From Candidatus Aceula meridiana (GTDB lineage: Bacteria > Omnitrophota > Gorgyraeia > Zapsychrales > Aceulaceae), in assembly GCA_030765185.1 (NCBI GenBank), contig JAVCDE010000024.1:443538-507537 (forward strand): DNA of 64,000 nt. Direction: 5' to 3'. Below the pieces are notes generated by a model. It was not told where the DNA came from and searched no databases. It saw only the letters and a program-made list of their open reading frames with translations. This document shows, one piece after another, positions 1,603 to 17,642 of this stretch (within the stretch, counting starts at the first letter, position 1; each line of letters begins with the position of its first letter). The position numbers and the translations under genes were made by a program.

Positions 1603-2742
1603 TTACAGGCTCCATGCTTTTTTGAGCTGATGTTGATTATCAATAAGAGCATTCATGTACGTTAGCTCCAAATCAATCATTTCCGTATCTTTTCGACGCA
1701 GCCACTCCGAAAGCCAAGCAAAGCGAAGAGCGATAATAAATTCTAATAAATATTTCCAGCTTGTCACCGAGATTGTGCCTGGGGCTTTCATCTCTTCTAA
1801 GAAAGAAATGACTAAATCTCCTAAAAGACTTGAAGGATGCTCAACGCCGACGCATCCTATGAGATTAGCTATGTCATAGGTCTCCGGCTTAATGCCGCAG
1901 AACTCCCAGTCAATGACACATCTTATATTATCTTCGCCCCAAACAATATTCATGGGATGATAATCTCCATGACAAAATTGAGTTGGTAGGCTGTCGTAGA
2001 CTTTCATAAAATCTTTCTCAAGAAAACTAATCACACCATCGACTTGGGCTTCAATAGGTGGATAATGCCTCTTAATCGATTGCTGCAACTTATAAATGTA
2101 GCCTTTGAGTGAAAAATCTTTCTTTCGGTCCTCGGGAAAAATATCTTTAGATTTCGCGTAAAGCGAAATCAAGAAATCCGCTAAAAGCGGCCCACGCCAT
2201 TTTTCATAAATATATTTTGTGCGGTCAAGGGCGACGCCTGGAATAAAATGCGCAACCTGCCAAAAACTCTTTTTGTGTTCTAAAATATGCTGGCCTTGCC
2301 TATTTTTTAAATAAGGCCGGACAAGAGAAAGATGTTCTTTGACAAGAAACTCTAGAGTGCGGGCAATTCTTCTTTTTGTTTCAAGGCTTTTATGCTCAAC
2401 TTGCTCAAGTAAAAAGAAATTCTTATTTTCATCTTCAGCAACAACACGAAAAACACTTCGCTCGGGGCTTCCCTCGATAAGAATATCATAATGCAAAGCC
2501 TTTAGCGTAATCCCAAAAAGTCCTGCCACCTCATGAAGAACTTCGAGGCTAACAGTCGGATAGCGCTCTTTAACAACGATATGGGTTTCTTTTTTTGACT
2601 TTAAAATACGTGCTGCATACACGATGCCTTTAGGACATTTATTACCCTTAACCTCAACGGTCTTTTCATCCTTCCAATCAAGGCTTAAATTGCAACCATT
2701 AGGGCACTCTTTGCAGATAAGATTTTTTTTAGGGTCTGTCAT
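1603..2742 (-). CDS. phosphotransferase (APH/choline-kinase-like fold) with N-terminal CxxC-type zinc ribbon
   Basis: Brenner-type catalytic motif HGDYHPMNIVW...IDWEFCG. N-terminal CKECPNGC...CPKG. Confidence 0.6.
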   Translation of the reverse strand: MTDPKKNLICKECPNGCNLSLDWKDEKTVEVKGNKCPKGIVYAARILKSKKETHIVVKERYPTVSLEVLHEVAGLFGITLKALHYDILIEGSPERSVFRVVAEDENKNFFLLEQVEHKSLETKRRIARTLEFLVKEHLSLVRPYLKNRQGQHILEHKKSFWQVAHFIPGVALDRTKYIYEKWRGPLLADFLISLYAKSKDIFPEDRKKDFSLKGYIYKLQQSIKRHYPPIEAQVDGVISFLEKDFMKVYDSLPTQFCHGDYHPMNIVWGEDNIRCVIDWEFCGIKPETYDIANLIGCVGVEHPSSLLGDLVISFLEEMKAPGTISVTSWKYLLEFIIALRFAWLSEWLRRKDTEMIDLELTYMNALIDNQHQLKKAWSL

Positions 2743-2897
2743 GTTTTTAGTCTTTTAGAGGGGTAAGTTTGACCATATTAGCAATTTCTTTGAGGGGTGT
2801 CTACATTTTCATCAGATTTCAAGCAAAAAATCTTTACAACAAAATCTCTGACTGATAAGATAGCCACATCAATAAACTTTTAAAAGGAAAAATCCCT

Positions 2898-3446
2898 ATG
2901 AAAAAAACAATAGTCTTCATTCTCATCTTAACTTTTATCTTTGGATTCTCATCTTTAGCTCTTGCCGGATGGAAAGAAAGCCCGCATAAAAAAGAAATGC
3001 TCCTAAAAGAATCGAATTTAGCCATTCAAAATTTTAAATATGCCGATCCTGAAATCGAAAGATTTTTTGAAAGAGCTTACGGCTGGGCGATTTTCCCAAC
3101 TGTCGGCAAAGCTGCTTTTGGCATTGGCGGCGCTTACGGCGAAGGCCTTGTTTACGAAAAAAAAGAAACTATCGGCCACGCATCATTAACACAACTTAGT
3201 TTTGGGTTTCAAGCTGGCGGGCAAGGCTACAGCGAAATTATCTTTTTTAAAGATAGTGACACCCTTAGCCAATTTAAACAAGGTAATTTCAAGCTTGGGG
3301 CAACTGCCTCAGCTGCCATTGTAACGCTTGGCGCATCCATGGATGCAGATTTTAACGAGGGCCTCGCGATTTTTACTCTTGTTAAAGGCGGACTAATGGT
3401 CGAGGCGTCTGCAGCCGGGCAAAAATTTAAATACTGGAATTATTAA
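2898..3446 (+). CDS. SYLF (Ysc84/DUF500) lipid-binding domain lipoprotein-like protein
   Basis: Signal peptide. FGIGGAYGEG, FKLGATASAA and GLMVEASAAG match SYLF-domain conserved blocks. Confidence 0.7.
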   Translation: MKKTIVFILILTFIFGFSSLALAGWKESPHKKEMLLKESNLAIQNFKYADPEIERFFERAYGWAIFPTVGKAAFGIGGAYGEGLVYEKKETIGHASLTQLSFGFQAGGQGYSEIIFFKDSDTLSQFKQGNFKLGATASAAIVTLGASMDADFNEGLAIFTLVKGGLMVEASAAGQKFKYWNY

Positions 3447-3454
3447 TTCTTAAA

Positions 3455-4648
3455 ATGGAAACACTTAAAACTTTTTATGATTTAATGTTTCAAACAAGAG
3501 ACGCGCGACGCCTTCTTGTTTTAGATTGCCTTGAAAACAAAACGCTCGAACACAAGGACATCTTACCTCTAAAACAAGCTCTTGCTACACTCGAAGCAAC
3601 TCCAAAGAAAGAAAATCAATATATTCTAAAGCTGGAAGGTGAGAAAACAATCGCCCTTGACTTATCTTATGAAATTGATGAATTAAAAAAGGATCTTCTT
3701 TTTTTAGAAAAAGGCGAAGATGCGCTCTTAAAATTTCTAGAAAACATTCATGCCGATTTTGAGACACAAATTAAAAGCGTCGTGTCTGCGCTTAGCGCAA
3801 AGAAATTTCATACGCTCATTACCGATCGTGATGGCACTGTAAACAATTATTGCGGTCGCTATGCTTCTTCGATTCAATCCGTTTATAATGCAGTCTTTTT
3901 AACGCGCTTTGCTAAAAAACTAGACAATGCCGTTATTTTAACCTCCGCCCCTCTTAGAAGTATCGGACTTGTTGATATCAGCGTTGTCCCACAAGGTGCT
4001 TTTATCCATGCTGCCTCAAAAGGGCGAGAATACATCAATAAAAAAAACAAGCGCTGCCACTTTCCGATAAAGGAAGAAAAACAAAAAAAACTCGATGAAT
4101 TTAACGCCGAGCTTTCTTCTCTTGTTAAAAATCCGCAATATGCAAAGTTTGCTTTAATAGGATCAGGCCTGCAGTTTAAATTTGGCCAAACGACCATCGC
4201 CCGACAAGACATTACAAAATCTATTCCCAAAGACGAATCCTTAAGATTTTTAAAGCTTGTTGAAAATTTGGTTAGCCGTATAGGTAACCAAAAACAATTT
4301 TTCCGTATCGAAGACACGGGTAAAGATGTTGAAATTATTCTAACTGTTGAGAACGTTCAGTCAGGTCTAGATCCGAAAGATTTTGATAAAGGAGATGGCG
4401 TCGCTTTTCTCGAGAAACATGCTTCCCTCCATATGGCAAAAGGTGGGAATTTAATCTGCGGAGATACTCCGTCAGATATCCCGATGATCCCGGCTGCCCT
4501 CCACTATTCAAATGACACAACCGCTATCTTTGTTTCAAATGGAAACGAGGAATTCGAGCAAAAAGTCAAAAGGCTTTATCCAAACACGATTGTTGTCAGC
4601 ACACCCGACATTCTTGTCACGGCTTTAAACGCTCTTGCCCGCGATTAA
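3455..4648 (+). CDS. HAD-superfamily IIB phosphatase (trehalose-6-P / mannosyl-3-phosphoglycerate phosphatase-like) with about 110-aa N-terminal extension
   Basis: HAD motif I ITDRDGT, motif II ILTSA, motif IV ICGDTPSDIPM. Confidence 0.6.
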   Translation: METLKTFYDLMFQTRDARRLLVLDCLENKTLEHKDILPLKQALATLEATPKKENQYILKLEGEKTIALDLSYEIDELKKDLLFLEKGEDALLKFLENIHADFETQIKSVVSALSAKKFHTLITDRDGTVNNYCGRYASSIQSVYNAVFLTRFAKKLDNAVILTSAPLRSIGLVDISVVPQGAFIHAASKGREYINKKNKRCHFPIKEEKQKKLDEFNAELSSLVKNPQYAKFALIGSGLQFKFGQTTIARQDITKSIPKDESLRFLKLVENLVSRIGNQKQFFRIEDTGKDVEIILTVENVQSGLDPKDFDKGDGVAFLEKHASLHMAKGGNLICGDTPSDIPMIPAALHYSNDTTAIFVSNGNEEFEQKVKRLYPNTIVVSTPDILVTALNALARD

Positions 4649-5290
4649 AGCTAATTTCTTTTTTTTAGGCCAGCTCTTAATTTGCGCCTCGCGTTTCATG
4701 GCTTCAACCCGTCCGTCTAATTTCTCTGAATATAGTAACTTTTCAAAACCAAAAACTTTTGTAAAACGCGCGCCCTTACCATTTTTGTGAGCGGCCATGC
4801 GCTTTTCAATATCATTAGTAATCCCGGTATAAAGCGTCTTTTTTTGAGATTCCAAAATATAAACATACCACGCGCCAACCGTAGGTGTATTGATCCGACG
4901 GATTTTAAACTTTCGGTCGGCCCACAGGCCAATAATTTCTTTAACAGGAAAATTCCACTTCTTAATTTCTTCAATAGCTTTTAAAGTCTGTTTCTTTTGT
5001 TCATCTCGGCCTGTGGGATTGCGCACACAATTAAAATGGCCGACAACAGCAACAGCTTGGGATTTATGCCTAAAAACAGATATTTCCACGCGCCTTTTGA
5101 TGGATAAAACACCTGCCTTTTCTTTGCCCTCGGCCAACATTTTATTGGGACCCGCCTCAGTTATCATGTCGATAAAGGCACAGCCATATTTATTCTTTAA
5201 ATACTTAACAACAGGTTCCTGTGTGCGCCCATCCATGCAGTTGATCGCTGTTACAAATTTCTTGCTCATTCTTAAAATACTCCCTTTCAA
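4625..5290 (-). CDS. fusion protein: unknown N-terminal domain plus C-terminal GIY-YIG (UPF0213/YhbQ-like) nuclease domain
   Basis: C-terminal WYVYILESQKKTLYTGITNDIEKRMAAH...IKSW is a GIY-YIG signature. N-terminal 120 aa carry CMDGR and HFNC motifs. Confidence 0.55.
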   Translation of the reverse strand: MKGSILRMSKKFVTAINCMDGRTQEPVVKYLKNKYGCAFIDMITEAGPNKMLAEGKEKAGVLSIKRRVEISVFRHKSQAVAVVGHFNCVRNPTGRDEQKKQTLKAIEEIKKWNFPVKEIIGLWADRKFKIRRINTPTVGAWYVYILESQKKTLYTGITNDIEKRMAAHKNGKGARFTKVFGFEKLLYSEKLDGRVEAMKREAQIKSWPKKKKLALIAGKSV

Positions 5291-5341: not shown

Positions 5342-6148
5342 TTAGCGCTTCTTTTCTGCATCCAGCCTTAAAAATAACAGCCCTTTCCCAAGGTAAGGGC
5401 CAAACATAGAGTCAAAATGCACATTCCTTTTCACGCTAAGATTATCTTGATATTTCTCTTCCATCGCAGAAAAAATCTTTTCAAGCTTTTCTCTCTCCTG
5501 AGGGGATAATTTTCCTGTCGAAGGGCCCTGCATTTTATCTAAATAAAAACGGCTCCTAGCAACCTGAATTTGAGCAATAAACTCATCTTCCTTTGCTTGG
5601 TTAGCCGCTATGGCAAGATACCGGCTAAACGTGTTATTAGAATTCGTAGCCCCTATTCGGCTAACAAGCTTGCGATAATAATCTAATGTTTGGGGCATAA
5701 CTTTTAAGGCTTGTTGAAAATTTAAAATAGCCTTCTCGTATTCTTTGCGATCAAAGAAAATCATTCCCCTGTCAAAAAGATAAGAATAGATATAAGGGTT
5801 TGCTTGAATAGCTTTATCGTAAAATTTAATTGCCTTTGAAAGATTGTTAAGTTGAACATAGCAGTACCCTGTGTTCCCATACGCATAATCTTGTCCGGGG
5901 AGCATATGCAAAAATTCTTTGTAATAATTAATAGCCCGTACAAAATCAAAACTGCGCATCTCTTGCCCCTCGGAGAGCCTTTCAACCAGTTCCCCTTCAA
6001 AATGCTGCTGGTTCCCCAGCCTAGCTAACTCAACCTGAAAAGGCTGCCTTTGCGCCAACTGAAAGAAAATAAAACCCACAACAAAATACAACCACAAGTA
6101 TCGTGTAAAGGCTACCCGAAAGTATTTTATCCAAGAAAATTTTTTCAT
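5342..6148 (-). CDS. membrane-anchored tetratricopeptide (TPR) repeat protein
   Basis: N-terminal TM helix. Repeated AxxYY(K/Q) TPR consensus (AINYYKEF, AIKFYDKAIQANP). Confidence 0.6.
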   Translation of the reverse strand: MKKFSWIKYFRVAFTRYLWLYFVVGFIFFQLAQRQPFQVELARLGNQQHFEGELVERLSEGQEMRSFDFVRAINYYKEFLHMLPGQDYAYGNTGYCYVQLNNLSKAIKFYDKAIQANPYIYSYLFDRGMIFFDRKEYEKAILNFQQALKVMPQTLDYYRKLVSRIGATNSNNTFSRYLAIAANQAKEDEFIAQIQVARSRFYLDKMQGPSTGKLSPQEREKLEKIFSAMEEKYQDNLSVKRNVHFDSMFGPYLGKGLLFLRLDAEKKR

Positions 6149-8388
6149 AACTTTTGCCTGCTACGATTAAAATATTTTAAATCCTTTATAAATAAAAAAA
6201 TCACCCACAAAAACATTCCGTTAAAAATACAAAGGATCAGCACATATATTTCTGCACCGCCTAAAGGAGAATAAACAAGTCGCATAACATTCTTGCCCGC
6301 AGGCAAAACAATTCCCTTAAAAGCAATATTAGCCCTATATATCTTCGTAGGGTTACCATTAAAAAACAATTTCCAATCCTTATGATAGCTGTCGTTATAG
6401 ACTAAAAACTTTTTTGTATCAAAATTTGTTTCTAAGACAATTGAATTTGTGTCAAAGTGGGTTACCGAAAGTTCTTGCGACGGGCCCTTAACGATCTTAG
6501 CCTTTTGAGAGACCTTTGATGATCCTTGAAGAAAATTAAGATCATCATCAAAGTCCTCTTGGGCAACAAGCGCCAAGTTTAAATCCTCCTGAAAAACTTT
6601 TTTCACAAGATCAAGGTCTTCTTCTTTCTTGCCAGAGAGCGCTCGCCCTTTATCATAAATATAAAATTTATACTTTACATATTCTTCAACTGTTTCCTTT
6701 GGCAAATTTTCAAAAAGATAAGCCGTCCACCAACAGGGAAAATGAGAATTTCCTACATAGCTGATGAAGTCGCGCATCTGGAGAAGATGCCGAATGTGAC
6801 TCCTGCTGTTAACAATTCCCTCATAGTCAGGGCGGACATAGCGAAATAAAAAACCATCTGAAGGCGGGAAAATATAATCGATCGCATAGCTCTTATCGTT
6901 AAAAGGATCACCGCGATAATGCCACATCCCTTGAAGAGGCTGAATCGAAACACACACAAAAAGAATCAAAAGCGATAACCATCGATAAATCTTGTTTTTA
7001 AAGAAGAACTCAGAACAAAAATATATAAAACTTAAGAAAATTGTAATATAAAAAGAGGCGATTGTGTTCTTTTGCCAAAAAAGAAATGCTAAAACAGCTA
7101 AATGCGCCGCAAACAGAACCCAAAAAATTCCCCTCTGGCTTAAAACAAATTGCTCTTTGATAATCGTGCGCCACTGCAACGTCGTAAAGAGGACAAAAAT
7201 ACCTACAAAGGCCGGCCAAAAAGACGAAAACGAATGAATAACTTTAAACATAGGAAGAACTTTGTAAAAAACCGCGTACATCTTTCCTGGAGGGCCTAAA
7301 AGAAGAAAATATAAAAGAATGAGCATCAAAAGCAAGGTAAAAGACTTCCGGGTAATACGGTTGAAAGCGCCTAACAAAAAAATAATAACAACAAAAAATG
7401 GAATAAGAATATAATCGCTCCACCAACCACGAAAATACAAATTATTGGAGAAATGCTGACTTAAGAAACTTTTGGAATCAAACGAATCCGAAAGAAGCTC
7501 GTCTGGGTTCATCTCTCCTCCTTTTTTTGAAAGGGCATCTTCACCCTGTGGATGGCGGTCGTGAAAAACAACCTCCTTGTTCTTGGACATGGCAAAAGCC
7601 CGCCAAACAGGCACCAGAGTTACACCTAAGAGTGAAAAACAAACAAAAATTAAAATAAAATTTTTCTTAGAAAAGGTAACCATAGAGGCGACAGAATTTA
7701 CAGCAAACTTAAAGTCGCACACAAAGGTTGTAAAAATAACAAAAAAGAAGACCATTAACCAATACGGAGGGAAATAGGACGAGGCAATGACCATTAAACA
7801 AAAAATAAGCCCAACAAAAAATTTTGGTTTTTGCGTCTCACAAAGACGAAGCCAGCAATAAAAGAACCAAACCATTGGAACATAAATAATTGATATCGTT
7901 GCAAAATTCTCAAAAACACATTGCATCGCAAAAAACATCATCAAAAAAGATAAATATGCACCAAGGTTATCTTTTAAAAAAGCCTTCGCAAAAGAATAAA
8001 AACCCATCATCCCAAAAAAGAAAAAGATAACATTGGTATAGAGATAAGAAAAATAATACGAAATGCCTATTTTATGAAGGATAAAAACAAGCCACCAGAT
8101 AGGATTAAAGATGCCAAAAAAGTTATTCCCGACAAGGTCTGGAACTCCCCACACCACAAAAGGGTTCCACAAGGGGAAGTCCCCCCTAATGATGTTTTTA
8201 ATAAAATAGGTAACCAGCCCATAAATAATATGGCCGTCTCCGACAACAGAACTCTCCCCTGTCAAAAAACCACCAAAAATAAAAACCCAAATCCCAAAAG
8301 GAATAAAAAACTTAAAAATTCTTCCTATCGCCTTTAAGGCAGCAGATTGATTGTAATCCTCAAAGATTCTTTTTAACATAGATGTCAT
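6145..8388 (-). CDS. YfhO-like polytopic membrane glycosyltransferase (GT-C fold) with C-terminal soluble domain
   Basis: 747 aa, more than 12 predicted TM segments, C-terminal globular region. Overlaps the downstream GT2 gene as in GtrB/YfhO-type pairs. Confidence 0.55.
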   Translation of the reverse strand: MTSMLKRIFEDYNQSAALKAIGRIFKFFIPFGIWVFIFGGFLTGESSVVGDGHIIYGLVTYFIKNIIRGDFPLWNPFVVWGVPDLVGNNFFGIFNPIWWLVFILHKIGISYYFSYLYTNVIFFFFGMMGFYSFAKAFLKDNLGAYLSFLMMFFAMQCVFENFATISIIYVPMVWFFYCWLRLCETQKPKFFVGLIFCLMVIASSYFPPYWLMVFFFVIFTTFVCDFKFAVNSVASMVTFSKKNFILIFVCFSLLGVTLVPVWRAFAMSKNKEVVFHDRHPQGEDALSKKGGEMNPDELLSDSFDSKSFLSQHFSNNLYFRGWWSDYILIPFFVVIIFLLGAFNRITRKSFTLLLMLILLYFLLLGPPGKMYAVFYKVLPMFKVIHSFSSFWPAFVGIFVLFTTLQWRTIIKEQFVLSQRGIFWVLFAAHLAVLAFLFWQKNTIASFYITIFLSFIYFCSEFFFKNKIYRWLSLLILFVCVSIQPLQGMWHYRGDPFNDKSYAIDYIFPPSDGFLFRYVRPDYEGIVNSRSHIRHLLQMRDFISYVGNSHFPCWWTAYLFENLPKETVEEYVKYKFYIYDKGRALSGKKEEDLDLVKKVFQEDLNLALVAQEDFDDDLNFLQGSSKVSQKAKIVKGPSQELSVTHFDTNSIVLETNFDTKKFLVYNDSYHKDWKLFFNGNPTKIYRANIAFKGIVLPAGKNVMRLVYSPLGGAEIYVLILCIFNGMFLWVIFLFIKDLKYFNRSRQKL

Positions 8389-9064
8389 TTAGTAAAATAA
8401 AAACTGTTTTCAGTGTCCTCAAAAAACTGCGCGGACGCAAAGCCTTAGTCTTTCCCTCTCGACGGCCGATATCAATGAAAGGAATTTCCTTATAAGTGCA
8501 TCTGGATTTTAAAAACCGGATGTTATAGCTAGCAATCGCTGCAAGCCCATTTGACCGCACATGAAGGCTTTGCATATGTTTGGTTTTACAAATAAAAGGT
8601 CCCGTGTAACCTTTAAGGCGAAGGCCAAACACAACATTCATACAAACCGTAAAAATCTTTGAAATAAATTTACGCAACCGGCCTTGCTTATTATGATTTG
8701 CCTTGTAAGAAATAATCAAATCTACAGAGCCTATCTCTTTAACGGCATCGCGCCAAGACTCCCAAGCAAGATCATTATCGCCCGGGAAAAAAGTGGTATA
8801 CGTTTTTTCTGCTATAGCGGCGCCCTTGCGAAGGCAGCCCCCAAGCCCGCTGTTGATTTCATTGGCCACAACTTTTATTCTTAAATTCTCATGCGCCTTC
8901 TCTTGTGCAATGGCTTGAGTGTTGTCTTCGCTAGCATCATTGATGACAATAATCTCATAATCCTCAACAAGCCCATCGATTGCGTTCACAACGCTTTCGA
9001 TAGCTGCCCGGATATTGCCCTCTTCGTTAAAAGCCGGAATAATAATCGTGAGGTCTTTTGTCAT
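8360..9064 (-). CDS. family 2 glycosyltransferase (DPM1/GtrB-like, soluble form)
   Basis: N-terminal IIIPAFNEEGNI...IVINDASEDNT GT2 signature. Confidence 0.75.
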   Translation of the reverse strand: MTKDLTIIIPAFNEEGNIRAAIESVVNAIDGLVEDYEIIVINDASEDNTQAIAQEKAHENLRIKVVANEINSGLGGCLRKGAAIAEKTYTTFFPGDNDLAWESWRDAVKEIGSVDLIISYKANHNKQGRLRKFISKIFTVCMNVVFGLRLKGYTGPFICKTKHMQSLHVRSNGLAAIASYNIRFLKSRCTYKEIPFIDIGRREGKTKALRPRSFLRTLKTVFILLNDIYVKKNL

Positions 9065-9068
9065 TTTA

Positions 9069-10373
9069 CTATATAAAATTAATATGTTCAGGGGGATTTT
9101 TAATGTCCCACAAGAATTTATTGATGTAGTCCTGACGGCATCCTACTGTGCAGTCACAATGAACATCAATGTTTTCAGCAATGTCCTTGTGAACTTTCCA
9201 ATATTTTGCACTCTGGACAATACCATAATAAGACTTTTTATGAATGTCGCCCATGCAAAAACGTTCTTTTCCGAAAAAAGGGCCGCACGGATAAACTTTT
9301 CCATTGCCGCTGACCTGGCCTAAAAATGGCGTGCCATAGCAAATGTCATACTTGCGAAAACCATTTTTATAAAGCTGTGTTTCCTCGTTAATGTTAATTT
9401 TGCTCCACTTTACCCGCACGAGATAAGAATCATTGCTGTATTTTTCTGCTTTTTTAAGAATGCCTTGAGCCTTTTTGTATGCCGCATGATCAACGCCAAT
9501 CTCGCCATACTCAGTGTCTGAACATTGTTTAATCTGAAAATAGTCGACCCCGAGCTTTACTCCAAGCTTTGCTAATTTAAGAACCTGATCAAAATTCTCA
9601 GGCAACAAAATCATCTGGATTCCCAGCGTGCATTTATAATTATTTTCTTTCTTAATTTTAGCAAAATTTCTTATTTTATCGATAAGCACATCAAAGCTTT
9701 TCTCACTCACTTGATGAATCCTCGCAAAACCTTTTTTGTCTCCAGCGCTTAAATTAAAACGAATAAACGTCGCATTTTTCAAAAGATCATGAGCCCGGTC
9801 CATTCTCAAAAGAAGACCATTCGTAGCAATGCCAACATCAATATTTCTTTTTTTAGCGCGCACCACAGCATCATACATCGCTGGGTTTAGGGTAGGCTCG
9901 CCGTCTCCGATAAAAGCAATGCTCCGCACTTTCAGTCGTCCGCAATCATCAATAAACCGCATCAAAGCATCTCTTTTGATAAGCGCCCCTTTAACCATTC
10001 CTTGCGCAACGCCCATGCAATAAACGCACCCCATGTTACAAAATTTTGTAAGCCCCATATCAATATGGATAGGAGCAATCCGCTTGTTCCTTTGCCAGTC
10101 AAGAACACGATCCAAATGATGCAAAAGCTTATGTCCATCTAACCGAAAACGCTCACTTTTGTTTTTAAAAGTATGTCCAGTATATTGATTAGGCTTCTTT
10201 TTACCTAAAGAAATTTTTTGAGACTTATCGGGACTCTTTCCCAGAAGAGACCGGTCGACCACTTCTTTTCCTGTTCGAAGCGCATGCCCTCCATGTAAAG
10301 TCGTCTTCAAGCTTTTTACAACTTGAATCTTTTGCGATGTTACCGTCTTTTTCTTGCTTGTTCTTTTTTTCAT
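9069..10373 (-). CDS. radical SAM enzyme with C-terminal Cys-rich (SPASM/twitch-like) region and Lys-rich N-terminal tail; paralog of 11752..12819
   Basis: CNMGCVYC CxxxCxxC motif. C-terminal C...CMGD...CDCTVGC. C-terminus WDIKNPPEHINFI parallels the paralog ending WDLKNSSAHVNFI. Confidence 0.7.
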   Translation of the reverse strand: MKKRTSKKKTVTSQKIQVVKSLKTTLHGGHALRTGKEVVDRSLLGKSPDKSQKISLGKKKPNQYTGHTFKNKSERFRLDGHKLLHHLDRVLDWQRNKRIAPIHIDMGLTKFCNMGCVYCMGVAQGMVKGALIKRDALMRFIDDCGRLKVRSIAFIGDGEPTLNPAMYDAVVRAKKRNIDVGIATNGLLLRMDRAHDLLKNATFIRFNLSAGDKKGFARIHQVSEKSFDVLIDKIRNFAKIKKENNYKCTLGIQMILLPENFDQVLKLAKLGVKLGVDYFQIKQCSDTEYGEIGVDHAAYKKAQGILKKAEKYSNDSYLVRVKWSKININEETQLYKNGFRKYDICYGTPFLGQVSGNGKVYPCGPFFGKERFCMGDIHKKSYYGIVQSAKYWKVHKDIAENIDVHCDCTVGCRQDYINKFLWDIKNPPEHINFI

Positions 10374-10377
10374 AGCG

Positions 10378-10866
10378 CTACACTCTTAAATAGCCGGGTT
10401 CTCGGCTTTTCATCCATTGCTTTACCATCTTAGAAAAATTGGGCTTGCCCTTATAGGGATCATAAACCTTTAGCCCCACGATCTTCATCAAAGCCTTATC
10501 ATCTTTTCCACAGCAATGAGATATCCCCAAGAATCGAAAATAATTATCAACACCTGTTGCAATAAATTTAACATTTAAATTCTGATTAACAACATCATTG
10601 CGTATCTGCTCTAAAGCACGAAAGGCTAAAAAATTTACAATCGAATAAACAACCGGAATCAGTCCTGACGCGGCCATCCCGGAGGCAATCCCCACAGTCG
10701 CCTGCTCCATCATCCCAAAATTAAAAATACGCTCTGGAAATTCTTTTTTAAAATCATCAACAACGCCAAAGCCCATATCGCAAACCAAAAGGACAATACG
10801 GCTATCTTTTCTTGCCCAAGCCAACAGTTCACGTCCTATTGCTTTTCTATAATCTTTATCCTTCAC
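10378..10866 (-). CDS. transketolase C-terminal-section subunit, pyrimidine-binding domain only (162 aa)
   Basis: FNFGMMEQATVGIASGMAASG is a TK Pyr-domain motif. Shorter than a canonical C-subunit. Confidence 0.6.
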   Translation of the reverse strand: MKDKDYRKAIGRELLAWARKDSRIVLLVCDMGFGVVDDFKKEFPERIFNFGMMEQATVGIASGMAASGLIPVVYSIVNFLAFRALEQIRNDVVNQNLNVKFIATGVDNYFRFLGISHCCGKDDKALMKIVGLKVYDPYKGKPNFSKMVKQWMKSREPGYLRV

Positions 10867-11716
10867 AACAATTTCCCATTTCTAATTCTTTTTGAGTAGG
10901 AACACGAAAATGAAATTTAGGAACATTTTCCATACACTTAAGCCCATGCCCTTTTATTGTTTTTGAAATAAGTACGCGAGGTGTTTTTGCCTTACCCATA
11001 TTTTTACGCCATTGTTTAAAAATAGAAGTCATTTCACTTAAGCTATGCCCGCTGCATGTCTTAACCTCAAGCCCAAACCCTTTTATTTTCTGCTGTAAAT
11101 CATTCTTTCTTCCTTTAAGAGTCAAAACATTTTCTAAGAAATCCATAGCCTGCAGACGGTTATGATCAACAATAATTGTTAAATTTGTCAGGCCGAATTT
11201 AGCTGCCGCCTGAATCGCCTCCCAGTTGCTCCCTTCCTGCATCTCTCCATCTCCGACAATGCAGTAAACATGATATTTCTTTTTCTGCAGCTTAGCCCCA
11301 AAAGCGATTCCCACCGCTTGAGGAAGCCCATGTCCCAAAGAGCCGCAACTCATCTCAAGCCCACGCGAAAGATCGCGCTCAACGCAGCCAGTCAAAGAAC
11401 TTTTTTTATAAAAAGATTTCCATTCTTTTTGAGAAATATACCCAAAATCAGAAAGAATCGCATAAAGCCCATAACACCCATGGGCTTTTGAAAAAACCAG
11501 TCGGTCGCGCCCTTCCCATGTCGGATCAGAGCTCAAGCTCATGACCTGATAATAAAGCGCAACAAGAATATCCACGCAAGATAAAGATGGCGCAATATGC
11601 CCTGCTTTATTCTGAATACAAACTCGCAAAAGATCCCGGCGAACAAAATCAGCCTTTTTCTTCGCTGCTTGAACAGATAACTTCTTTAATCTTTCATTTT
11701 TTATCTTTATTCCCAT
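10856..11716 (-). CDS. transketolase N-terminal-section subunit (TPP-binding)
   Basis: GHGLPQAVGIAFG and IVGDGEMQEGSNWEA are TPP-binding motifs. Start moved to internal MGIKIKNERL, which removes the overlap with the upstream gene. Confidence 0.75.
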   Translation of the reverse strand: MGIKIKNERLKKLSVQAAKKKADFVRRDLLRVCIQNKAGHIAPSLSCVDILVALYYQVMSLSSDPTWEGRDRLVFSKAHGCYGLYAILSDFGYISQKEWKSFYKKSSLTGCVERDLSRGLEMSCGSLGHGLPQAVGIAFGAKLQKKKYHVYCIVGDGEMQEGSNWEAIQAAAKFGLTNLTIIVDHNRLQAMDFLENVLTLKGRKNDLQQKIKGFGLEVKTCSGHSLSEMTSIFKQWRKNMGKAKTPRVLISKTIKGHGLKCMENVPKFHFRVPTQKELEMGNCCEG

Positions 11717-11751: not shown

Positions 11752-12819
11752 TTAAATAAAATTTACATGTGCAGACGAATTTTTTAAATCCCACAAATAT
11801 CGGTTAACCTCATCCATGCGGCAATTCACACGGCAGCAAGAAACATCCATTTCTGATTGCACCCACTCAAGAGACTTTTTCCTTTTATCACTTTTCCAAA
11901 TCTTTTCAAATGCCTCTTCATAAATGTTCCCATAATGAAACTTTTCATCACCCAAATAAACACTACACCCCCAGACGTTACCGCCTGCATCAAGATAAGA
12001 CCAAAACGGCAAAGCCAAACAATGCTTATAATCACGCGCTGCCTCATCCCATTTTTTCATTGCCTTCAGACGAAAAATAACAGAAAAAGACTCTGAATTA
12101 AATTGTTGTAACTCATCGCTCAATTTTTCATATTCTTGATACTTGATGTCTTTGTACTCTTTCGTAATGCTTTGAGGATGCTGAGAATACGGCTTAACAA
12201 CAAAATAATCCATTCCAATTTCTCTTGCTAATTTAGCTAGAGAAATCGCTTCTTGCGCATTCTCCGGTAAAAGAACCATCTGCATGCCAAGGGTACAATC
12301 ATATTTTTTGTTTTTACGAATCTCAGCAGCATTACACGCATTCTCAATAACTTTATCAAAATCTTCCTGAGGACATCGATGAATCTTTGCATATGTTTGC
12401 GCCGTTGCCCCATCGATGCCTATTTTAATCCATTTCAAAGAAAAAAGTAGATTTTCTACTTTTTCTTTCTTTAGCAAGACCCCATTTGTTGTTATCGCCG
12501 CATCAATACCACAGTTCTTTGTATGCTTAATAATTTCAACAATATCCTTATGAAGAAGAGGTTCCCCTTCACCAGCGTACATAATACTCTTAAGACCCAA
12601 CTGACCCAACTCTGCTAAACGCTCCATCAAAATATCTTTATCAAGAAAACGCGGTTGATACTTCATGAAGTCAAGCCCGCAATAAATACAACGATGATTG
12701 CACGCGCCCGTAGGGCTTATTTCCATATAAATAGGAGAAATATTCTCACCTTTAAGCCAATCATTGACTCTAGGAATGTGGTACATAAGCTTATGAGAAT
12801 CTATTTTGTACTTATCCAT
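11752..12819 (-). CDS. radical SAM enzyme with C-terminal Cys-rich (SPASM/twitch-like) region
   Basis: TGACNHRCIYC and GEGEPLL. C-terminal CSVYLGD...CCRVNC. Confidence 0.7.
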   Translation of the reverse strand: MDKYKIDSHKLMYHIPRVNDWLKGENISPIYMEISPTGACNHRCIYCGLDFMKYQPRFLDKDILMERLAELGQLGLKSIMYAGEGEPLLHKDIVEIIKHTKNCGIDAAITTNGVLLKKEKVENLLFSLKWIKIGIDGATAQTYAKIHRCPQEDFDKVIENACNAAEIRKNKKYDCTLGMQMVLLPENAQEAISLAKLAREIGMDYFVVKPYSQHPQSITKEYKDIKYQEYEKLSDELQQFNSESFSVIFRLKAMKKWDEAARDYKHCLALPFWSYLDAGGNVWGCSVYLGDEKFHYGNIYEEAFEKIWKSDKRKKSLEWVQSEMDVSCCRVNCRMDEVNRYLWDLKNSSAHVNFI

Positions 12820-12877: not shown

Positions 12878-13810
12878 TTACCTACGCCCCTCCAAATTTC
12901 GAACCTTCGTAGCCACCTCTAAAGGAGAAATTTCTTCCATGCAAAACTTCTTATTCTTACAAATTGGCAAATAGCACGGTCGATAACAGCATCTCAGTCT
13001 TGACGGCAAAATAGAAATATTTGGTATCCCCCTCATGCGCTTGTGATTTGTAGGACCAAACAAAGTAAGCACTTTCTTCCCAAGCGCCTGGGCAATAAGC
13101 TGGCCTAAAGAATCAGAAGTAACAATCATATTGCAACTATCAATCCAGTTAATATACTGACGAATATTTTTATGTCCCTTTTGCCAACTAACCGTAAAAT
13201 CAGACCTTAAAGACTTCTCGAGGCTTTTCCATTTCTTCAAAGGCCAGCCCTTAGTCGGCCACTTTGTTCCAACTGAATAATTAAATCCGATATCATAAAT
13301 GGGCTTCCTTTTTCCCTTTCGGGTCAAAATCATTCCTTGTCCATTCCACTTTTTTCCAACAGCTTGATAAAGAAGCTCAGCGGTGTTGCAATTAATAAAT
13401 CGATGATTTTCTTGGCCGGCAAGAAGATAGCGGGTGGCCTGTCGACAAGTTGCGATATCATGTATCTTTTCGTTAAAATAAAATCCAAATTTCTTTTTTG
13501 CCTTAACTTGCTTTAAAAATGCACAAATACCAATATCTTTTTCTAAATTAATAAAAATGTCGTAATGACTGCACGTAATCTTACGAAACGTCTGGCTTCC
13601 AAAGATAAGAAGCTTATGAATGAAGGGATTGTCTTTGAAAAGCCCCTTAGCCGCAGAAGATGTGACCCACGTGACATGGTCATTTTTATAAAGATGTAGC
13701 AGGGTCGTACAAAAAAGGACATCTCCTAAGCTTACTGTTGTGGAGATACCACGGTCTAAGAATTCAGAAAATCCCGTTTTGATAATAAGTATTTTTCTTT
13801 TCTTCTTCAT
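12878..13810 (-). CDS. GT9 family glycosyltransferase (LPS heptosyltransferase-like)
   Basis: KILIIKTG...SLGDVL N-terminal motif and C-terminal LFGPTNHKR. Start set at MKKKRKILII to abut the upstream stop. Confidence 0.6.
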   Translation of the reverse strand: MKKKRKILIIKTGFSEFLDRGISTTVSLGDVLFCTTLLHLYKNDHVTWVTSSAAKGLFKDNPFIHKLLIFGSQTFRKITCSHYDIFINLEKDIGICAFLKQVKAKKKFGFYFNEKIHDIATCRQATRYLLAGQENHRFINCNTAELLYQAVGKKWNGQGMILTRKGKRKPIYDIGFNYSVGTKWPTKGWPLKKWKSLEKSLRSDFTVSWQKGHKNIRQYINWIDSCNMIVTSDSLGQLIAQALGKKVLTLFGPTNHKRMRGIPNISILPSRLRCCYRPCYLPICKNKKFCMEEISPLEVATKVRNLEGRR

Positions 13811-13811
13811 G

Positions 13812-14711
13812 TTATTCAAACAAAATATCGGTTGAACAAAAGCCATCCTGCTGAAGATGGTTAGTTTTTACTTTTATGTCACATGGGCTGCAAGTCCCAT
13901 AACGAGAACAATCCCTATGCACGTACTCGATTTTTAAACTTGGGTCTAAAAGATTACCAATGGCCACTTCTTTTCTATTGGAATAAAGGTCTGCATGACA
14001 TCGGTAAACAGTCCCATCAGGTGCAATAGGCAAGACCATATTGCGACATTTAACTTTTTTTCCTGTCGCCTTGCCTATGCAAGCATCAGAATATTTATAG
14101 TGGCCATAAATTTTACCATCCCATTCGCCTAGAAATGTCTTTGTGCGAAACTCAACACCTTTTTCTTTGGCGTATTCTCTTATTTCTTCGACGAGATTGG
14201 GATAAGCCGGATGTTCAATGTGAAAAAGCCCAATACTTAAAATTTTCTGAAATTCTGCAATACGGTCAATTAGCTGTCGGTAATCATTCTGTCCATGATG
14301 ATAACTTACGCGAATTGTAGGATACGGCGCATCACGTTTATTCCAATCAAGCGTTTTTAGTGATTGGAAATGTTTTGGCGTAAGGTTTGGTGGTAAGGCT
14401 GTAAGGATATCGACCTTGTGTTGAATGTTCTCCAGAAGATCCCAAATACCTTTATATAAAAAAGGCTCTCCTCCTTGAAATGTCAGAGGAACGCCGTTAG
14501 GAAGTTTTAGCCGATTGAGCGCCGCAATCCATTGCGAAGAACCCACTTCTTCACCCTGCTTTATATTAATATATTTATTATTATAATTTGTTATACAGTA
14601 TTCGCAAGAAAGAAAACACCGATTTGTTAGGTAGACTCCAATGTAGTCTGTGTCTACAGGAAGGTCGACTTGAGGCAAAATTACGCTTGAAAGGTTCTTT
14701 TCTTCAGCCAT
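13812..14711 (-). CDS. radical SAM / SPASM-domain protein
   Basis: CFLSCEYC, FQGGEPFL. C-terminal CRNMVLPIAPDGTVYRC...CSRYGTCSPCD. Confidence 0.7.
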   Translation of the reverse strand: MAEEKNLSSVILPQVDLPVDTDYIGVYLTNRCFLSCEYCITNYNNKYINIKQGEEVGSSQWIAALNRLKLPNGVPLTFQGGEPFLYKGIWDLLENIQHKVDILTALPPNLTPKHFQSLKTLDWNKRDAPYPTIRVSYHHGQNDYRQLIDRIAEFQKILSIGLFHIEHPAYPNLVEEIREYAKEKGVEFRTKTFLGEWDGKIYGHYKYSDACIGKATGKKVKCRNMVLPIAPDGTVYRCHADLYSNRKEVAIGNLLDPSLKIEYVHRDCSRYGTCSPCDIKVKTNHLQQDGFCSTDILFE

Positions 14712-14901
14712 TGTTTTGATTTTGAGTATCCCTCATTATACAAAAAACCCAAATCTTTTCAACAAATATCACCTTCCGTAACAAATCCAAGCATCCTTGG
14801 CGCAAGGACTGAATTTATGAAAAATATTATTATTTCGATAAAAATCTCTTATGATATATAATAATGCTTAATTAAATTCCTCTTTAAAAAATAAAGAAAT
14901 A

Positions 14902-16698
14902 ATGAATCCGTCACAAAAACAAAAAATATTCTATTTCGCGATTATTCTTATCGTTAATTTGATTATTTTCCTTCCTTCGTTCTCTCAAATCGCGCGGCAC
15001 GACCATCTTCACTATATTGCTAACCGGACAGGGGAAGAAAGCTGGTTTTCTTTGGCCGTGCAAAACTCCTTAACATATAATAGAAAACACTACGCCTTCG
15101 CCGAACGCGACCCCCTCTTGTTTCGTCCGCTTTTTTACTTTGTCTTGGGAACAGAGCTATCTTTGTTTGAATACGATTTCCGTCTCTGGCAAATCACTGG
15201 ATTTCTCATGCACATGCTTGTCGCGTGGTCCTTGCTAAGCCTCCTGTTTCGAATTCGCTCAGGCCCGTTGGCTGGAATGTGGACCTTACTTTTTACAGTC
15301 ATGTACGGAAATGTCGAGATGGTTATCTGGCACAATATCAGCAGTTACATGATTTACGTTAGCTGCATCCTCACATGCTTTTATATTTTTTATGATGTCG
15401 ATGAGACCCGTACAATAACTACGCACAAATCCTGGCTTTTATTTCTACTATTTTTTATCAGCTGTTTTATTTATGAAGTCGGATTTTTAATGTCCTTTCT
15501 CTTTTTCGCGGCTTCCTATTTTATTACAACCACTCCACAACAAAAAAAATCCTTTGCCACTAAGTATTGGCGCTTCATGATTTTTTTTCCGGGGCTCTTC
15601 TATCTTTTGCTAAACCTTGTCGTGTTCTTCTCGAAAACTCAAGGCCTGGCAGAAACAAAACACATTGCCCATGCCTCCTTTTTCCAAATATTTAAAGCAA
15701 TCGGCATGAGCATTTACTGGTGGCTTTCAACAGGGCTTTTCCCTTGGCTCTTAAAGCCTGCCTTAGGCGAGAGAGTTATTTTTTATTACAATGGAGCTTT
15801 TTTAAACCCAAGATCTATTTTTCTCATTAATCATCCCACAGCAGCCTTAGGATTAATATCTCTTTTCGGCGCGGCCACATGCTTCTTTATTCTACTTAAA
15901 AAAGGATTAACAAAAAAATTTATTAAACAGAGGCTTCCGTTTCTCATATTAGTTCTAAGCGCTTGGGCTGTTCACCTTGTTGTCATTGTTGTTGGCCGTA
16001 GAATTTGGGCTGATCAACCGGCCCTTGCCAACAACAGTTACTACAACTATTTCTTCTGGTTTTATCTGATTGTCGCCTCTTATAGCCTTATTAATTTTAA
16101 AAAAAATGCTTGCTTCCATAAATTCTTAAATTCAAAAAATTTTTTGCTGGCCTTCTGCTTCTTGCTCATGTTTGTGAATGCGTCAAAAATCCTCACGCTA
16201 AACCGCCGTTATCAAAATGTTTTTCAAAAACGCTTATTAGTTTTAAATAAAGCCAGAAACCTTATCAAAACCCATCGCACCGAGGAAGGCTTTACCTTTA
16301 TCATTGATAAAAACTCTATAACCCCCATGCCGTTCTTGGAAAAAGAACCGCCCGTCCCAGGCGAACAACCCTATGCTTATACGCAAATGATTTATCCAAT
16401 GTTTTTTCAAAAAGAAAATCCTCGCTATATTATTTCTTTGACGCCGGAACAAATTCAGCAAGCTAACTTATCTTCCCTAGAAGCACGGGTTGAGAACTTT
16501 ATCGAGCCTCCAGTCTTGCGATGGGGTCAATCAGACTTAGATTCTTTTCTCCTGCTTGTTAACGCTTATATCGAAACCGGCGAAAAGGACAAGGCGCTTA
16601 GTCTTGTAAATAAAATTCTCAAATTCCACACCAACGATCACCAATTGGTAGAATTTGCTCTAACAATAAAAGAAAAAATAATTAAGCCAAGAAACTAA
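14902..16698 (+). CDS. polytopic membrane protein, possible GT-C/ArnT-like glycosyltransferase, with C-terminal TPR-like tail
   Basis: 598 aa, more than 10 TM helices. Hydrophilic C-terminus. Confidence 0.4.
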   Translation: MNPSQKQKIFYFAIILIVNLIIFLPSFSQIARHDHLHYIANRTGEESWFSLAVQNSLTYNRKHYAFAERDPLLFRPLFYFVLGTELSLFEYDFRLWQITGFLMHMLVAWSLLSLLFRIRSGPLAGMWTLLFTVMYGNVEMVIWHNISSYMIYVSCILTCFYIFYDVDETRTITTHKSWLLFLLFFISCFIYEVGFLMSFLFFAASYFITTTPQQKKSFATKYWRFMIFFPGLFYLLLNLVVFFSKTQGLAETKHIAHASFFQIFKAIGMSIYWWLSTGLFPWLLKPALGERVIFYYNGAFLNPRSIFLINHPTAALGLISLFGAATCFFILLKKGLTKKFIKQRLPFLILVLSAWAVHLVVIVVGRRIWADQPALANNSYYNYFFWFYLIVASYSLINFKKNACFHKFLNSKNFLLAFCFLLMFVNASKILTLNRRYQNVFQKRLLVLNKARNLIKTHRTEEGFTFIIDKNSITPMPFLEKEPPVPGEQPYAYTQMIYPMFFQKENPRYIISLTPEQIQQANLSSLEARVENFIEPPVLRWGQSDLDSFLLLVNAYIETGEKDKALSLVNKILKFHTNDHQLVEFALTIKEKIIKPRN

Positions 16699-16734
16699 GA
16701 TTGTATTCTTTTAAGAAACGCTAAAATAAAACTC

Positions 16735-17549: not shown

Positions 17550-17583
17550 CAATATCTTTCTAAAAACTTATTTTTATTAAAGA

Positions 17584-17622: not shown

Positions 17623-17642
17623 AAAATTTCTAAAAACTTAGA

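Follow-up and report, generated by a model that had tools for sequence, protein, structure and literature searches.

Two split transketolase-like gene pairs in predicted envelope-glycan operons of Candidatus Aceula meridiana

Why should a bacterial genome carry, within one short stretch of DNA, two transketolases (TKs) that are each split into two genes and each lie among genes for glycosyltransferases and large membrane proteins? The stretch in question (64,000 nucleotides of Candidatus Aceula meridiana, phylum Omnitrophota; assembly GCA_030765185.1, contig JAVCDE010000024.1, positions 443,538 to 507,537; hereafter the window) contains two modules in which genes for a PP-domain subunit (TK-N) and a Pyr-domain subunit (TK-C) precede genes for a family 2 glycosyltransferase (GT2) and a YfhO-like protein. 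A first-pass annotation of the window described this as a duplicated synteny and proposed that the TKs act on a glycan substrate outside the pentose-phosphate pathway, perhaps making a C2-extended sugar that is then lipid-linked. All of the open reading frames (ORFs) that it named, with their coordinates, minus-strand orientation, gene order and domain assignments, were borne out by our analysis. The most likely reading of the evidence presented here is that the window holds two anciently diverged envelope-glycan operons, each using its TK-like enzyme to tailor a nucleotide-activated sugar that is afterwards exported on a lipid carrier.

Residue signatures of the two transketolase pairs

Gene and domain calls were made with Pfam and NCBIfam against the ORFs of the window, and related loci that were fetched for comparison are labelled L001 and so on. 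In module 1, the thiamine diphosphate (ThDP)-binding PP subunit TKN1 (10856-11716, 286 aa) matches Pfam Transketolase_N, DXP_synthase_N and TPP_enzyme_C; its ATG start at 11716 is backed by a 286-aa NCBI protein (P0121, 100% identical), and it has thousands of homologues at 60-72% identity. Its partner TKC1 (10378-10866, 162 aa) matches Transket_pyr only. In module 2, the PP subunit TKN2 (56813-57652, 279 aa; Transketolase_N) is 100% identical to NCBI protein P0001 of Ca. Aceula meridiana, and TKC2 (55906-56820, 304 aa) comprises Transket_pyr and Transketolase_C; an exact-sequence look-up with TKC2 returned no match. The PP, Pyr and C-terminal domains are thus all present across the module 2 genes, while module 1 lacks the C-terminal domain, a state conserved in its family. 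Among solved structures, all four subunits are closest to the split TK of Carboxydothermus hydrogenoformans (PDB 6YAJ/6YAK), with E = 1.6e-75 for TKN2 against 6YAK, which is also the best match of TKN1, and with TKC1 aligning to residues 36-190 of 6YAJ.

Residue signatures were compared across 149 non-redundant TK-N/TK-C pairs, drawn from 80 genome loci (TKN2 as query), 80 metagenome loci (TKN1 as query) and context look-ups. Positions are given in E. coli numbering; the human equivalents R318, H416, D424 and Q428 were read directly from the human TK alignment, in which positions 461, 469 and 520 of TKC2 correspond to human 416, 424 and 474, respectively. The canonical signature, found in the 6YAK/6YAJ reference and in pairs from Clostridia, Treponema and Saccharibacteria, comprises H26-P27, H66, H100, GQG, D155, N185 and H261-G262 in the first chain and R358, S385 (S/A), E411, H461, D469, H473 and R520 in the second.

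The TK-N subunits of the module 2 kind (type 2) keep H26, H66, H100, D155, N185 and H261, with Pro27 replaced by Ile, Val or Ser, GQG by GHG and Gly262 by Tyr or Phe; their TK-C partners keep Arg358, Ser385, Glu411 and His473, with His461 replaced by Gly, a variable residue at 469 and either Arg or Lys at 520. Within these ranges, TKN2 itself carries Pro27 to Ile, GQG to GHG and Gly262 to Tyr, and TKC2 carries His461 to Gly, Asp469 to Gln and Arg520 to Lys. The module 1 kind (type 1) keeps H26, H66, D155, N185 and H261 in TK-N, with Pro27 replaced by Ile, His100 by Cys, GQG by GHG and Gly262 by Phe; in TK-C, Arg358, Glu411 and His473 are kept, Ser385 and His461 are both Gly, Phe-Leu occupies positions 468-469 and the chain ends before Arg520. 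The His100 to Cys change is present in 66 of 66 non-redundant type-1 pairs, 58 of which show the exact type-1 pattern and the rest a near-identical one. Of the five catalytic histidines (26, 66, 100, 261 and 473), type 2 keeps all and type 1 lacks His100.

The ThDP/Mg2+ motif (GDG...N, containing Asp155 and Asn185) and the cofactor-activating Glu411 are kept in all 149 pairs and in all of the window subunits, the motif reading SDGE in TKN2 instead of the usual GDGE. The canonical set of sugar-phosphate residues (His461, Arg520 and Ser385) and the acceptor-hydroxyl residue Asp469 is incomplete in the window pairs; Arg358 is kept. By these residues, both pairs have an intact ThDP-binding and catalytic core and a rebuilt sugar-phosphate pocket. 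For the Geobacillus TK, we take positions 102, 474, 385, 462 and 521 to be E. coli 100, 473, 385, 461 and 520, as the numbering implies. Engineering of that enzyme required H102L/H474S for the use of pyruvate as donor, and S385D/H462I/R521H opened it to non-phosphorylated aldoses (PMC11997939).

A neighbor-joining tree of the concatenated PP and Pyr domains (420 columns, human TK as outgroup, 100 bootstrap replicates) gathers the non-canonical sequences into one clade in 91 of 100 replicates; type 1 is monophyletic in 100 of 100 and nested among type-2-like sequences, and the canonical split TKs form a basal grade. Both window pairs are paralogous members of one non-canonical, nucleotide-sugar-associated clade of split TKs, whose carriers span Omnitrophota, Verrucomicrobiota, Planctomycetota, Alphaproteobacteria, Bacillota, Bacteroidota, the Candidate Phyla Radiation and DPANN archaea. 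The states at His461 and Asp469, together with GQG to GHG and Gly262 to Tyr or Phe, provide a signature that separates these enzymes from housekeeping TKs, to which current annotation gives the same name.

A fourth signature (H26-Leu, GQG kept, His261-Ile, His461 to Ala, Asp469 to Asn) was seen at around 9944-11778 in L051 and L055, two Leptospira-like metagenome-assembled genomes (MAGs). There are no RfbF or RfbG genes near these pairs, which group with the non-canonical clade and may represent another specialized split TK.

One alternative is that these are ordinary split TKs that serve the pentose-phosphate pathway and are placed in glycan operons by chance, with type 1 possibly supplying sedoheptulose-7-phosphate to GmhA and HldE. 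Both pairs do match transketolase models as well as the solved split TK, type-1 relatives do lie beside GmhA, whose substrate is a TK product, and the search for TKs covered this 64-kb window, in which there is no third. Against this explanation, neither type retains His461 or Asp469; at position 520, TKC2 has Lys, type 2 as a whole has Arg or Lys, and type 1, whose chain ends earlier, has no residue. In type 1, His100 and Ser385 have been exchanged as well. The contexts point the same way: relatives with the window signatures sit in nucleotide-sugar operons, whereas canonical split TKs do not, the canonical-signature pairs having RfbF, RfbG or both in 0 of 6 sampled loci and a GtrB-like GT2 in 0 of 6. 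Furthermore, glucose-1-phosphate, the entry point of module 2, requires no TK, module 1 of the window is without GmhA or HldE, and L111 combines a canonical with a type-1 pair, as L089 combines a type-2 with a type-1 pair. We therefore consider a housekeeping role improbable; the loss of His461 and Asp469 with retention of the ThDP machinery instead agrees with the proposal that the TKs belong to glycan biosynthesis.

Two old cassettes in one window

Module 1 (14711-5342, minus strand) comprises genes for a radical SAM protein, a GT9 enzyme, the radical SAM enzyme rSAM0, TKN1, TKC1, a second such enzyme, rSAM1, a soluble GT2, a YfhO-like protein and a TPR protein; module 2 (62731-52545, minus strand) comprises RfbF, RfbG, a C-methyltransferase, a DegT aminotransferase, an N-formyltransferase, TKN2, TKC2, a GT2 and a YfhO-like protein. 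These spans contain the genes that the first-pass annotation had assigned to each module and extend beyond them; the CDP-hexose pathway of module 2, in particular, had not been listed. Both modules are tight minus-strand operons in which genes overlap or nearly abut. The best minus-strand promoter-like site for module 1 lies just upstream, at 14762-14735. Module 2 is bracketed by hairpin and T-run sites at 62852-62829 and 52328-52304, the former being the terminator-like hairpin of the gene upstream of RfbF, and has a promoter-like site at 62762-62734. The 38 kb that separate the modules hold unrelated housekeeping genes (an Mla transporter, glycogen phosphorylase, RND efflux, SerA/SerC-like enzymes, Rex and a two-component system).

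The order TK-N, TK-C, GT2, YfhO on the same strand within a single 64-kb window could suggest a recent segmental duplication of one cassette, which would have decayed in module 1 to leave a truncated TK-C and a GT2 without its membrane anchor. The proteins themselves are poorly matched, being only 28-40% identical at best. Pairwise BLASTP gives 37% identity over 258 aa for the TK-N pair (E = 6e-58), 40% over 158 aa for the TK-C pair (E = 7e-33), 35% over only 74 aa for the GT2 pair (E = 6e-7) and 28% over the C-terminal 148 aa for the YfhO pair (E = 1.6e-12); when the two YfhO families are compared as profiles, homology extends along the whole protein (hhalign probability 100%, E = 1.4e-45, 676 columns, 14% identity). 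The shared order and strand of the duplicated synteny therefore stand, whereas a recent copy, with TKs at 37-40% identity, GT2s alignable over 74 aa and YfhO proteins related at the profile level, does not.

Each module has closer relatives elsewhere. L001 reproduces module 2 gene for gene at 45-78% identity, followed by genes for a short-chain dehydrogenase/reductase (SDR), a radical SAM protein, a YfhO1-like protein and a TPR protein, and L089 and L090 do the same for module 1 (63-87% identity), down to the neighboring Pro_CA_2/GIY-YIG, T6PP and Ysc84 genes. As each module is closer to its relatives in other organisms than to the other module, they are two old, distinct cassettes. Low identity between the modules thus coexists with an adjacency that recurs in L001 and in L089/L090, and the shared arrangement is more than chance. 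Type 1 is, moreover, a clade with full bootstrap support.

The short TK-C subunit, described in the first-pass annotation as truncated, bears on the same question. Every type-1 TK-N that was examined has a Pyr-only partner of this kind (about 162-168 aa, or more broadly 160-170 aa), with its own residue signature, and in a library of 1.8 billion proteins such short Pyr-only proteins fall into many separate clusters at 50% identity. As the Pyr-only partner is found in all type-1 loci, TKC1 is a conserved short form rather than a truncation or a pseudogene. Taken together, the identities and the family-wide short subunit lead us to reject recent duplication, which we regard as extremely improbable. 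Two neighboring TK pairs are not peculiar to this genome, since L089 holds a type-2-like pair (370-2123) and a type-1 pair (10001-11312) in one glycan locus and L111 a canonical and a type-1 pair (2365-4124 and 9992-11318) in another.

Several features flank the modules. Directly after the YfhO1-TPR pair lies a fusion of Pro_CA_2 (putatively carbonic-anhydrase-like) with a GIY-YIG nuclease domain (4625-5290, minus strand), found in the same position in L089 (16453-17097) and L090 (6637-7281); L001 has an 84-aa GIY-YIG-only gene (18571-18825), with an LPG_synthase_TM gene between it and the YfhO1-like/TPR pair. Divergent from module 1, an ORF at 14902-16698 (plus strand) encodes a 598-aa polytopic membrane protein with 7 hydrophobic segments. 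It was considered as a third YfhO-like protein and rejected, hhalign giving no signal and Pfam only faint C-terminal TPR matches; it could be another envelope-glycan enzyme.

Gene partners and a predicted chemistry

The first gene of module 2 encodes RfbF, a glucose-1-phosphate cytidylyltransferase (61916-62731; NCBIfam TIGR02623, 386.8 bits against a cut-off of 300), and the second RfbG, a CDP-glucose 4,6-dehydratase (60835-61977; TIGR02622, 459 bits against 278). These two are the constant partners of type 2, often with RfbH. Counting loci of at least 12 kb, with neighbors called by BLASTP to window and locus proteins at simple thresholds, both RfbF and RfbG are present in 41 of 54 type-2 loci and one of the two in 8 more; without Bradyrhizobium the corresponding numbers are 26 of 39 and 8. 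In L041, L062, L065, L067 and L074, the gene immediately before TK-N encodes RfbH, with a score above the NCBIfam cut-off; these loci come from an Omnitrophota MAG, Paenibacillus popilliae, a Clostridium MAG, Thermolongibacillus altinsuensis and a Gastranaerophilales MAG. On plasmid pHY1 of Methylovirgula sp. HY1, rfbF, rfbG, an oxidoreductase gene, rfbH, TK-N and TK-C, with a divergent GT2 and GtrA, lie beside rfbBCDA, and the TK pair carries the type-2 signature. An SDR gene often adjoins the ThDP enzyme in type-2 loci, as YerF does in its own pathway.

Between RfbG and TKN2, module 2 encodes an NDP-hexose C-methyltransferase with a TylC3-like domain set (59561-60811; Methyltransf_13, Methyltransf_23 and Methyltransf_14), also found in L001, L008, L011, L047, L048, L054, L058 and L068; a DegT/LegC-like sugar aminotransferase (58425-59528; DegT_DnrJ_EryC1, 359 bits, with LegC/PseC-like NCBIfam matches below their cut-offs); and a sugar N-formyltransferase (57649-58428; Formyl_trans_N and N_formyltrans_C, with sub-cut-off NCBIfam matches to ArnA and to dTDP-4-amino-4,6-dideoxyglucose formyltransferase). 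In the verrucomicrobial-type loci L003, L004 and L005 (3359-7450) and L006 (5006-9995), genes for a Sulfotransfer_3 protein and an APH/fructosamine-kinase-like protein precede the type-2 TK pair and are placed between the dehydratase and the SDR, which hints at a sulfated or phosphorylated branched sugar.

The final two genes of module 2 would deliver the product. GT2_2 (54929-55885) matches GtrB (5EKP, E = 8e-54 over residues 8-309) and ArnC (9HWJ, E = 1e-31) along its whole length, from the GT-A domain through the juxtamembrane and the two C-terminal transmembrane helices; it has a hydrophobic stretch at residues 224-286 and gives NCBIfam matches to PgfS and ArnC-like families below their cut-offs; by these similarities it is predicted to be a GtrB/ArnC-type polyprenyl-phosphate glycosyltransferase. 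YfhO2 (52545-54908, 787 aa, TTG start) passes the cut-off of Pfam PF09586 (YfhO; 28.5 bits) at 35.0 bits, though marginally, as only the C-terminal approximately 80 residues match. Its AlphaFold2 model (predicted local distance difference test score 85.4, predicted template modelling score 0.89) returned GT-C proteins for all of its top 13 Foldseek matches and indicates a GT-C fold, in which the membrane domain is polytopic, the first loop on the outer side holds a conserved acidic residue and a soluble domain faces outward. An Asp after the first membrane helix is nearly invariant in both YfhO families (Asp51 in YfhO1; Asp40 conserved in YfhO2). The NCBI annotation of YfhO2 (P0241, 536 aa) covers the C-terminal 68% of the 787-aa ORF that starts at the TTG at 54908; as homologues of 737-803 aa cover 94-98% of this ORF, the NCBI entry probably misses the N-terminal third, including Asp40.

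The counterparts in module 1 match less closely. GT2_1 (8360-9064, 234 aa; Glycos_transf_2) has no hydrophobic segment, in keeping with the earlier description of a soluble GT2 in module 1, and finds only generic GT2 structures in the PDB, over its N-terminal half (GtrB, E = 7e-7 over residues 2-158). The two GT2s are not equivalent, and the assignment of a polyprenyl-phosphate-sugar synthase to both modules holds for GT2_2 and not for GT2_1, a generic GT2. YfhO1 (6145-8388, 747 aa, 13 hydrophobic segments) passes the Pfam YfhO cut-off marginally, at 28.8 bits and again only over the C-terminal region, and is followed by the TPR protein (5342-6148, 268 aa; TPR_1, TPR_2 and others), a gene pair that recurs in L001, L089 and L090. 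Both TK pairs lie in operons that end with lipid-carrier glycosylation genes.

The pairing of TK with GT2 and YfhO was nevertheless not upheld as a conserved core. A GtrB-like GT2 is present in 26 of 54 type-2 loci (11 of 39 without Bradyrhizobium), and together with a large polytopic membrane protein in 20 of 54, this protein being DUF6056 rather than YfhO in the Bradyrhizobium loci; a GT2_1-like soluble GT2 lies within 3 kb downstream of the TKs in 13 of 35 type-1 loci, and a large membrane protein within 9 kb in 14 of 35. The TK/GT2/YfhO synteny is a frequent, non-essential arrangement, and what stays constant is something else: RfbF/RfbG(/RfbH) in type 2 and, in type 1, heptose-activation genes together with genes for DegT aminotransferases and radical SAM enzymes.

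From these partners and the residue changes, we propose that the TK pairs catalyze ThDP-dependent carbon-carbon bond formation on a nucleotide-activated keto-sugar, to which we give somewhat better than even odds as a whole and less for any single step. In module 2, RfbF and RfbG would make CDP-4-keto-6-deoxy-D-glucose as the acceptor, and the TK2 pair would move a two-carbon ketol (hydroxyacetyl) unit from a donor, via a ThDP-bound dihydroxyethyl unit, to the keto carbon to give a C-branched sugar, the hydroxyacetyl branch being of the kind proposed for miharamycin. The step would parallel the one that YerE carries out with pyruvate in yersiniose synthesis. Retention of His26, His100, His261 and His473 in TK2 makes a hydroxylated donor probable. 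The sugar would then be finished by the C-methyltransferase, by the DegT aminotransferase, which may act on the branch carbonyl, and by the N-formyltransferase; transamination of a branch carbonyl has been described for kibdelomycin (PMC12247030). GT2_2 would load the sugar onto polyprenyl phosphate and, after flipping, YfhO2 would place it on an envelope acceptor in the manner of Arn and Gtr systems. A C2-extended sugar that is subsequently lipid-linked, as suggested earlier, or a branched one, is a reasonable reading, with precedents in YerE, alpha-KADH2 and the proposed miharamycin split TK (PMC12247030).

A competing possibility is that these are genuine glycan-pathway TKs that do not branch an NDP-keto-sugar: they might form an acyloin or a substituent derived from a 2-oxo acid (N-acyl or ketal), use a polyprenyl-phosphate-linked sugar as substrate, or work in the cleavage direction. 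The TK genes are usually the last biosynthetic genes ahead of the GT2, an Arn-like route in module 2 would be complete without the TK, given its aminotransferase, formyltransferase, ArnC-like GT2 and GT-C enzyme, and some loci carry kinase and sulfotransferase genes instead. Set against this, the only near-universal partners are RfbF and RfbG, the makers of a CDP-4-keto-sugar, often with RfbH, and this context mirrors the YerE pathway (PMC12247030); in addition, approximately half of the type-2 loci have no nearby GtrB-like GT2, so that a lipid-linked substrate is not general. We judge such non-branching roles unlikely, though a more serious contender than a housekeeping function, and return to branching of a nucleotide-activated keto-sugar as the preferred chemistry for type 1 also.

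Type-1 loci have HldE- or GmhA-like heptose-activation genes in 32 of 35 cases and radical SAM genes in 24 of 35. The gene directly upstream of TK-N encodes a DegT aminotransferase in 19 of 40 cases, a radical SAM enzyme in 8 and an HldE-like protein in 7, and an rSAM1-like gene lies downstream of the TKs in 20 of 35 loci (homologues at 41-44% identity). Module 1 of the window is a 'radical SAM plus GT9' variant shared with L105, L113 and L117. Its first gene encodes a 299-aa radical SAM protein (13812-14711; Radical_SAM and Fer4_12), homologues of which, at 37-40% identity, adjoin type-1 TK pairs in L105, L110 and L117. The second encodes a heptosyltransferase-family GT9 enzyme (12878-13846, 322 aa; Glyco_transf_9, 39 bits against a cut-off of 22) with weak NCBIfam heptosyltransferase matches, and homologues at 39-43% identity lie beside type-1 TKs in L105, L113 and L117.

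Two further radical SAM enzymes flank the TK1 genes. Both rSAM0 (11752-12819, 355 aa; motif CNHRCIYC) and rSAM1 (9069-10373, 434 aa; motif CNMGCVYC) pass the Pfam cut-offs for Radical_SAM and SPASM and carry the CxxxCxxC cluster motif with a C-terminal SPASM domain; they are paralogues at 32% identity. The upstream enzyme, rSAM0, is 62.5% identical to the product of a radical SAM gene upstream of TK-N in L092, making it a conserved upstream partner of type-1 TKs, and its nearest solved relatives are BlsE, MoaA and DesII. The substrates of BlsE and DesII, both radical SAM enzymes, are sugar nucleosides and nucleotides. The downstream enzyme, rSAM1, is 87% identical to its counterparts in L089 and L090.

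An N-terminal, Lys-rich, low-complexity extension of approximately 75 residues is present in rSAM1 and not in rSAM0; the long form (431-450 aa) is kept in L089 and L090, while more distant homologues are approximately 367 aa in length. This extension was considered as a remnant of the TK C-terminal domain and rejected, as it has no TK similarity and is conserved in L089/L090. Far from both modules, the window also encodes a B12-binding radical SAM enzyme (27897-29372, minus strand, 491 aa) that is 28% identical to one inside the L089 TK locus, and B12-radical SAM genes recur in type-1 loci.

In module 1, a minimal enzyme of PP and Pyr-only subunits would act between the two SPASM radical SAM enzymes, which may create or process a keto-sugar, and it would use a pyruvate-type, non-hydroxylated donor, as suggested by His100 to Cys and by the stronger similarity of TKN1 to 1-deoxy-D-xylulose-5-phosphate synthase. 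The substrate would be a different nucleotide sugar, heptose-derived in most relatives, and transfer would involve the soluble GT2, the second YfhO-like GT-C with its TPR partner and the GT9 enzyme. We put forward only tentatively the idea that such a minimal ThDP enzyme and its two SPASM radical SAM neighbors form an ensemble not described before, one that makes a novel heptose-derived sugar, either branched or of higher carbon number; a radical SAM dehydrogenase could, for instance, make the keto acceptor anaerobically, with the ThDP enzyme adding an acetyl unit.

In L091, beside a type-1 TK pair and a YfhO-like gene, an apparent yersiniose-type set of the classical kind at 14545-20522 comprises an RfbG-like dehydratase, an E1-like DegT protein, an NAD_binding_1 reductase and a YerE-like 587-aa TPP_enzyme_N/M/C protein. 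This organism may use both classes of ThDP branching enzyme.

Several points weigh against the proposed chemistry. Neighboring genes and residue changes are what the donor, the acceptor and even the reaction direction are read from, and in module 2, whose aminotransferase likewise requires a carbonyl, we can only guess at the sequence of steps and at the branch position. Retention of Arg358 would allow a phosphate-bearing ligand, or equally binding of the CDP diphosphate. No nucleotidyltransferase or dehydratase gene lies near module 1, and no HldE, GmhA or other nucleotide-sugar gene that could serve it was found in the window. Flippases of the GtrA or ArnE/F type were not recognized by Pfam in either module or its flanks, although distant forms may escape such a search; similarly, no ORF there matches a Pfam family of ArnD-like deformylases, unrecognized forms being possible. 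Sampling also matters, as the loci were drawn by pattern-seeded scans that keep the best matches rather than at random, 15 of the 54 type-2 loci are from the over-represented Bradyrhizobium, and the tree is a simple neighbor-joining one on 420 columns.

Comparison with known systems

C-branched sugars are rare, strongly antigenic and useful as chiral building blocks. To our knowledge, their formation has been demonstrated only for ThDP enzymes of the YerE and alpha-keto-acid-dehydrogenase types. If the tentative reading of the type-1 ensemble is correct, types 1 and 2 together would form a large, phylum-spanning family of 'sugar-nucleotide transketolases' that accounts for C-branched envelope sugars of uncultured bacteria and archaea. 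TK-like enzymes with a remodelled pocket are common in O-antigen-like operons of many phyla. For Omnitrophota, the two operons point to an unusually elaborate surface glycan. As cultured organisms (Bradyrhizobium, Methylovirgula, Paenibacillus popilliae and Thermolongibacillus) carry such genes, the hypothesis is directly testable. Searches of open-access text found no literature linking transketolase genes with CDP-glucose pathways, O-antigen clusters or YfhO, and nothing relevant on split transketolases with glycosyltransferases or on Bradyrhizobium glycans.

Branching of keto-sugars by ThDP enzymes is established for YerE-like and alpha-KADH2 enzymes; in yersiniose synthesis, RfbF, RfbG and RfbH make CDP-4-keto-3,6-dideoxyglucose, to which YerE adds a two-carbon unit (PMC12247030). 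The YerE/YerF pathway to yersiniose A (Yersinia pseudotuberculosis), with YerE-like enzymes such as ErwE and MMAR_2332, resembles many of the type-2 loci in that RfbF, RfbG and often RfbH precede the ThDP enzyme, and in the proposed chemistry, the attachment of a ThDP-bound C2 unit to a sugar keto carbon. However, YerE is a single-chain TPP_enzyme_N/M/C protein of the decarboxylase (acetolactate-synthase-like) superfamily, whereas by Pfam the window enzymes are two-subunit members of the transketolase family; they may work like YerE but are not members of its superfamily.

Split TKs have been proposed for the hydroxyacetyl branching of miharamycin and amipurimycin, on the basis of 13 sequences from secondary-metabolite clusters of Streptomycetes, among which there is no characterized enzyme (PMC12247030). 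Like the window pairs, these are two-gene TKs in sugar-tailoring clusters with a keto-sugar proposed as acceptor; the window clades differ in being found in envelope-glycan operons of many phyla, and the likeness drawn here is one of gene context and proposed acceptor. The C. hydrogenoformans enzyme shares the two-gene organization and the ThDP/Mg and catalytic residues, yet it has His461, Asp469, Arg520, GQG and His261-Gly262, sites at all of which both window pairs deviate, and type 1 is further without its His100, Ser385 and whole C-terminal domain.

For delivery, the closest parallels are the Arn, Gtr and CsbB-YfhO systems. Module 2 resembles Arn in combining an aminotransferase, an N-formyltransferase, an ArnC/GtrB-type GT2 and a GT-C enzyme in one operon, and the Methylovirgula TK cassette, as in Gtr systems, abuts GT2 and GtrA genes. 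Arn and Gtr start from UDP-glucuronate or UDP-glucose and end with ArnT- or GtrC-like GT-C enzymes, whereas the sugar of module 2 would derive from CDP-glucose and its GT-C enzyme is YfhO-like, with a TK-like enzyme and a C-methyltransferase in addition. What is new relative to all of these systems is that TK-like enzymes sharing a diagnostic residue signature form a broad clade in envelope-glycan operons, and that this clade includes a minimal subtype of two subunits associated with radical SAM enzymes.

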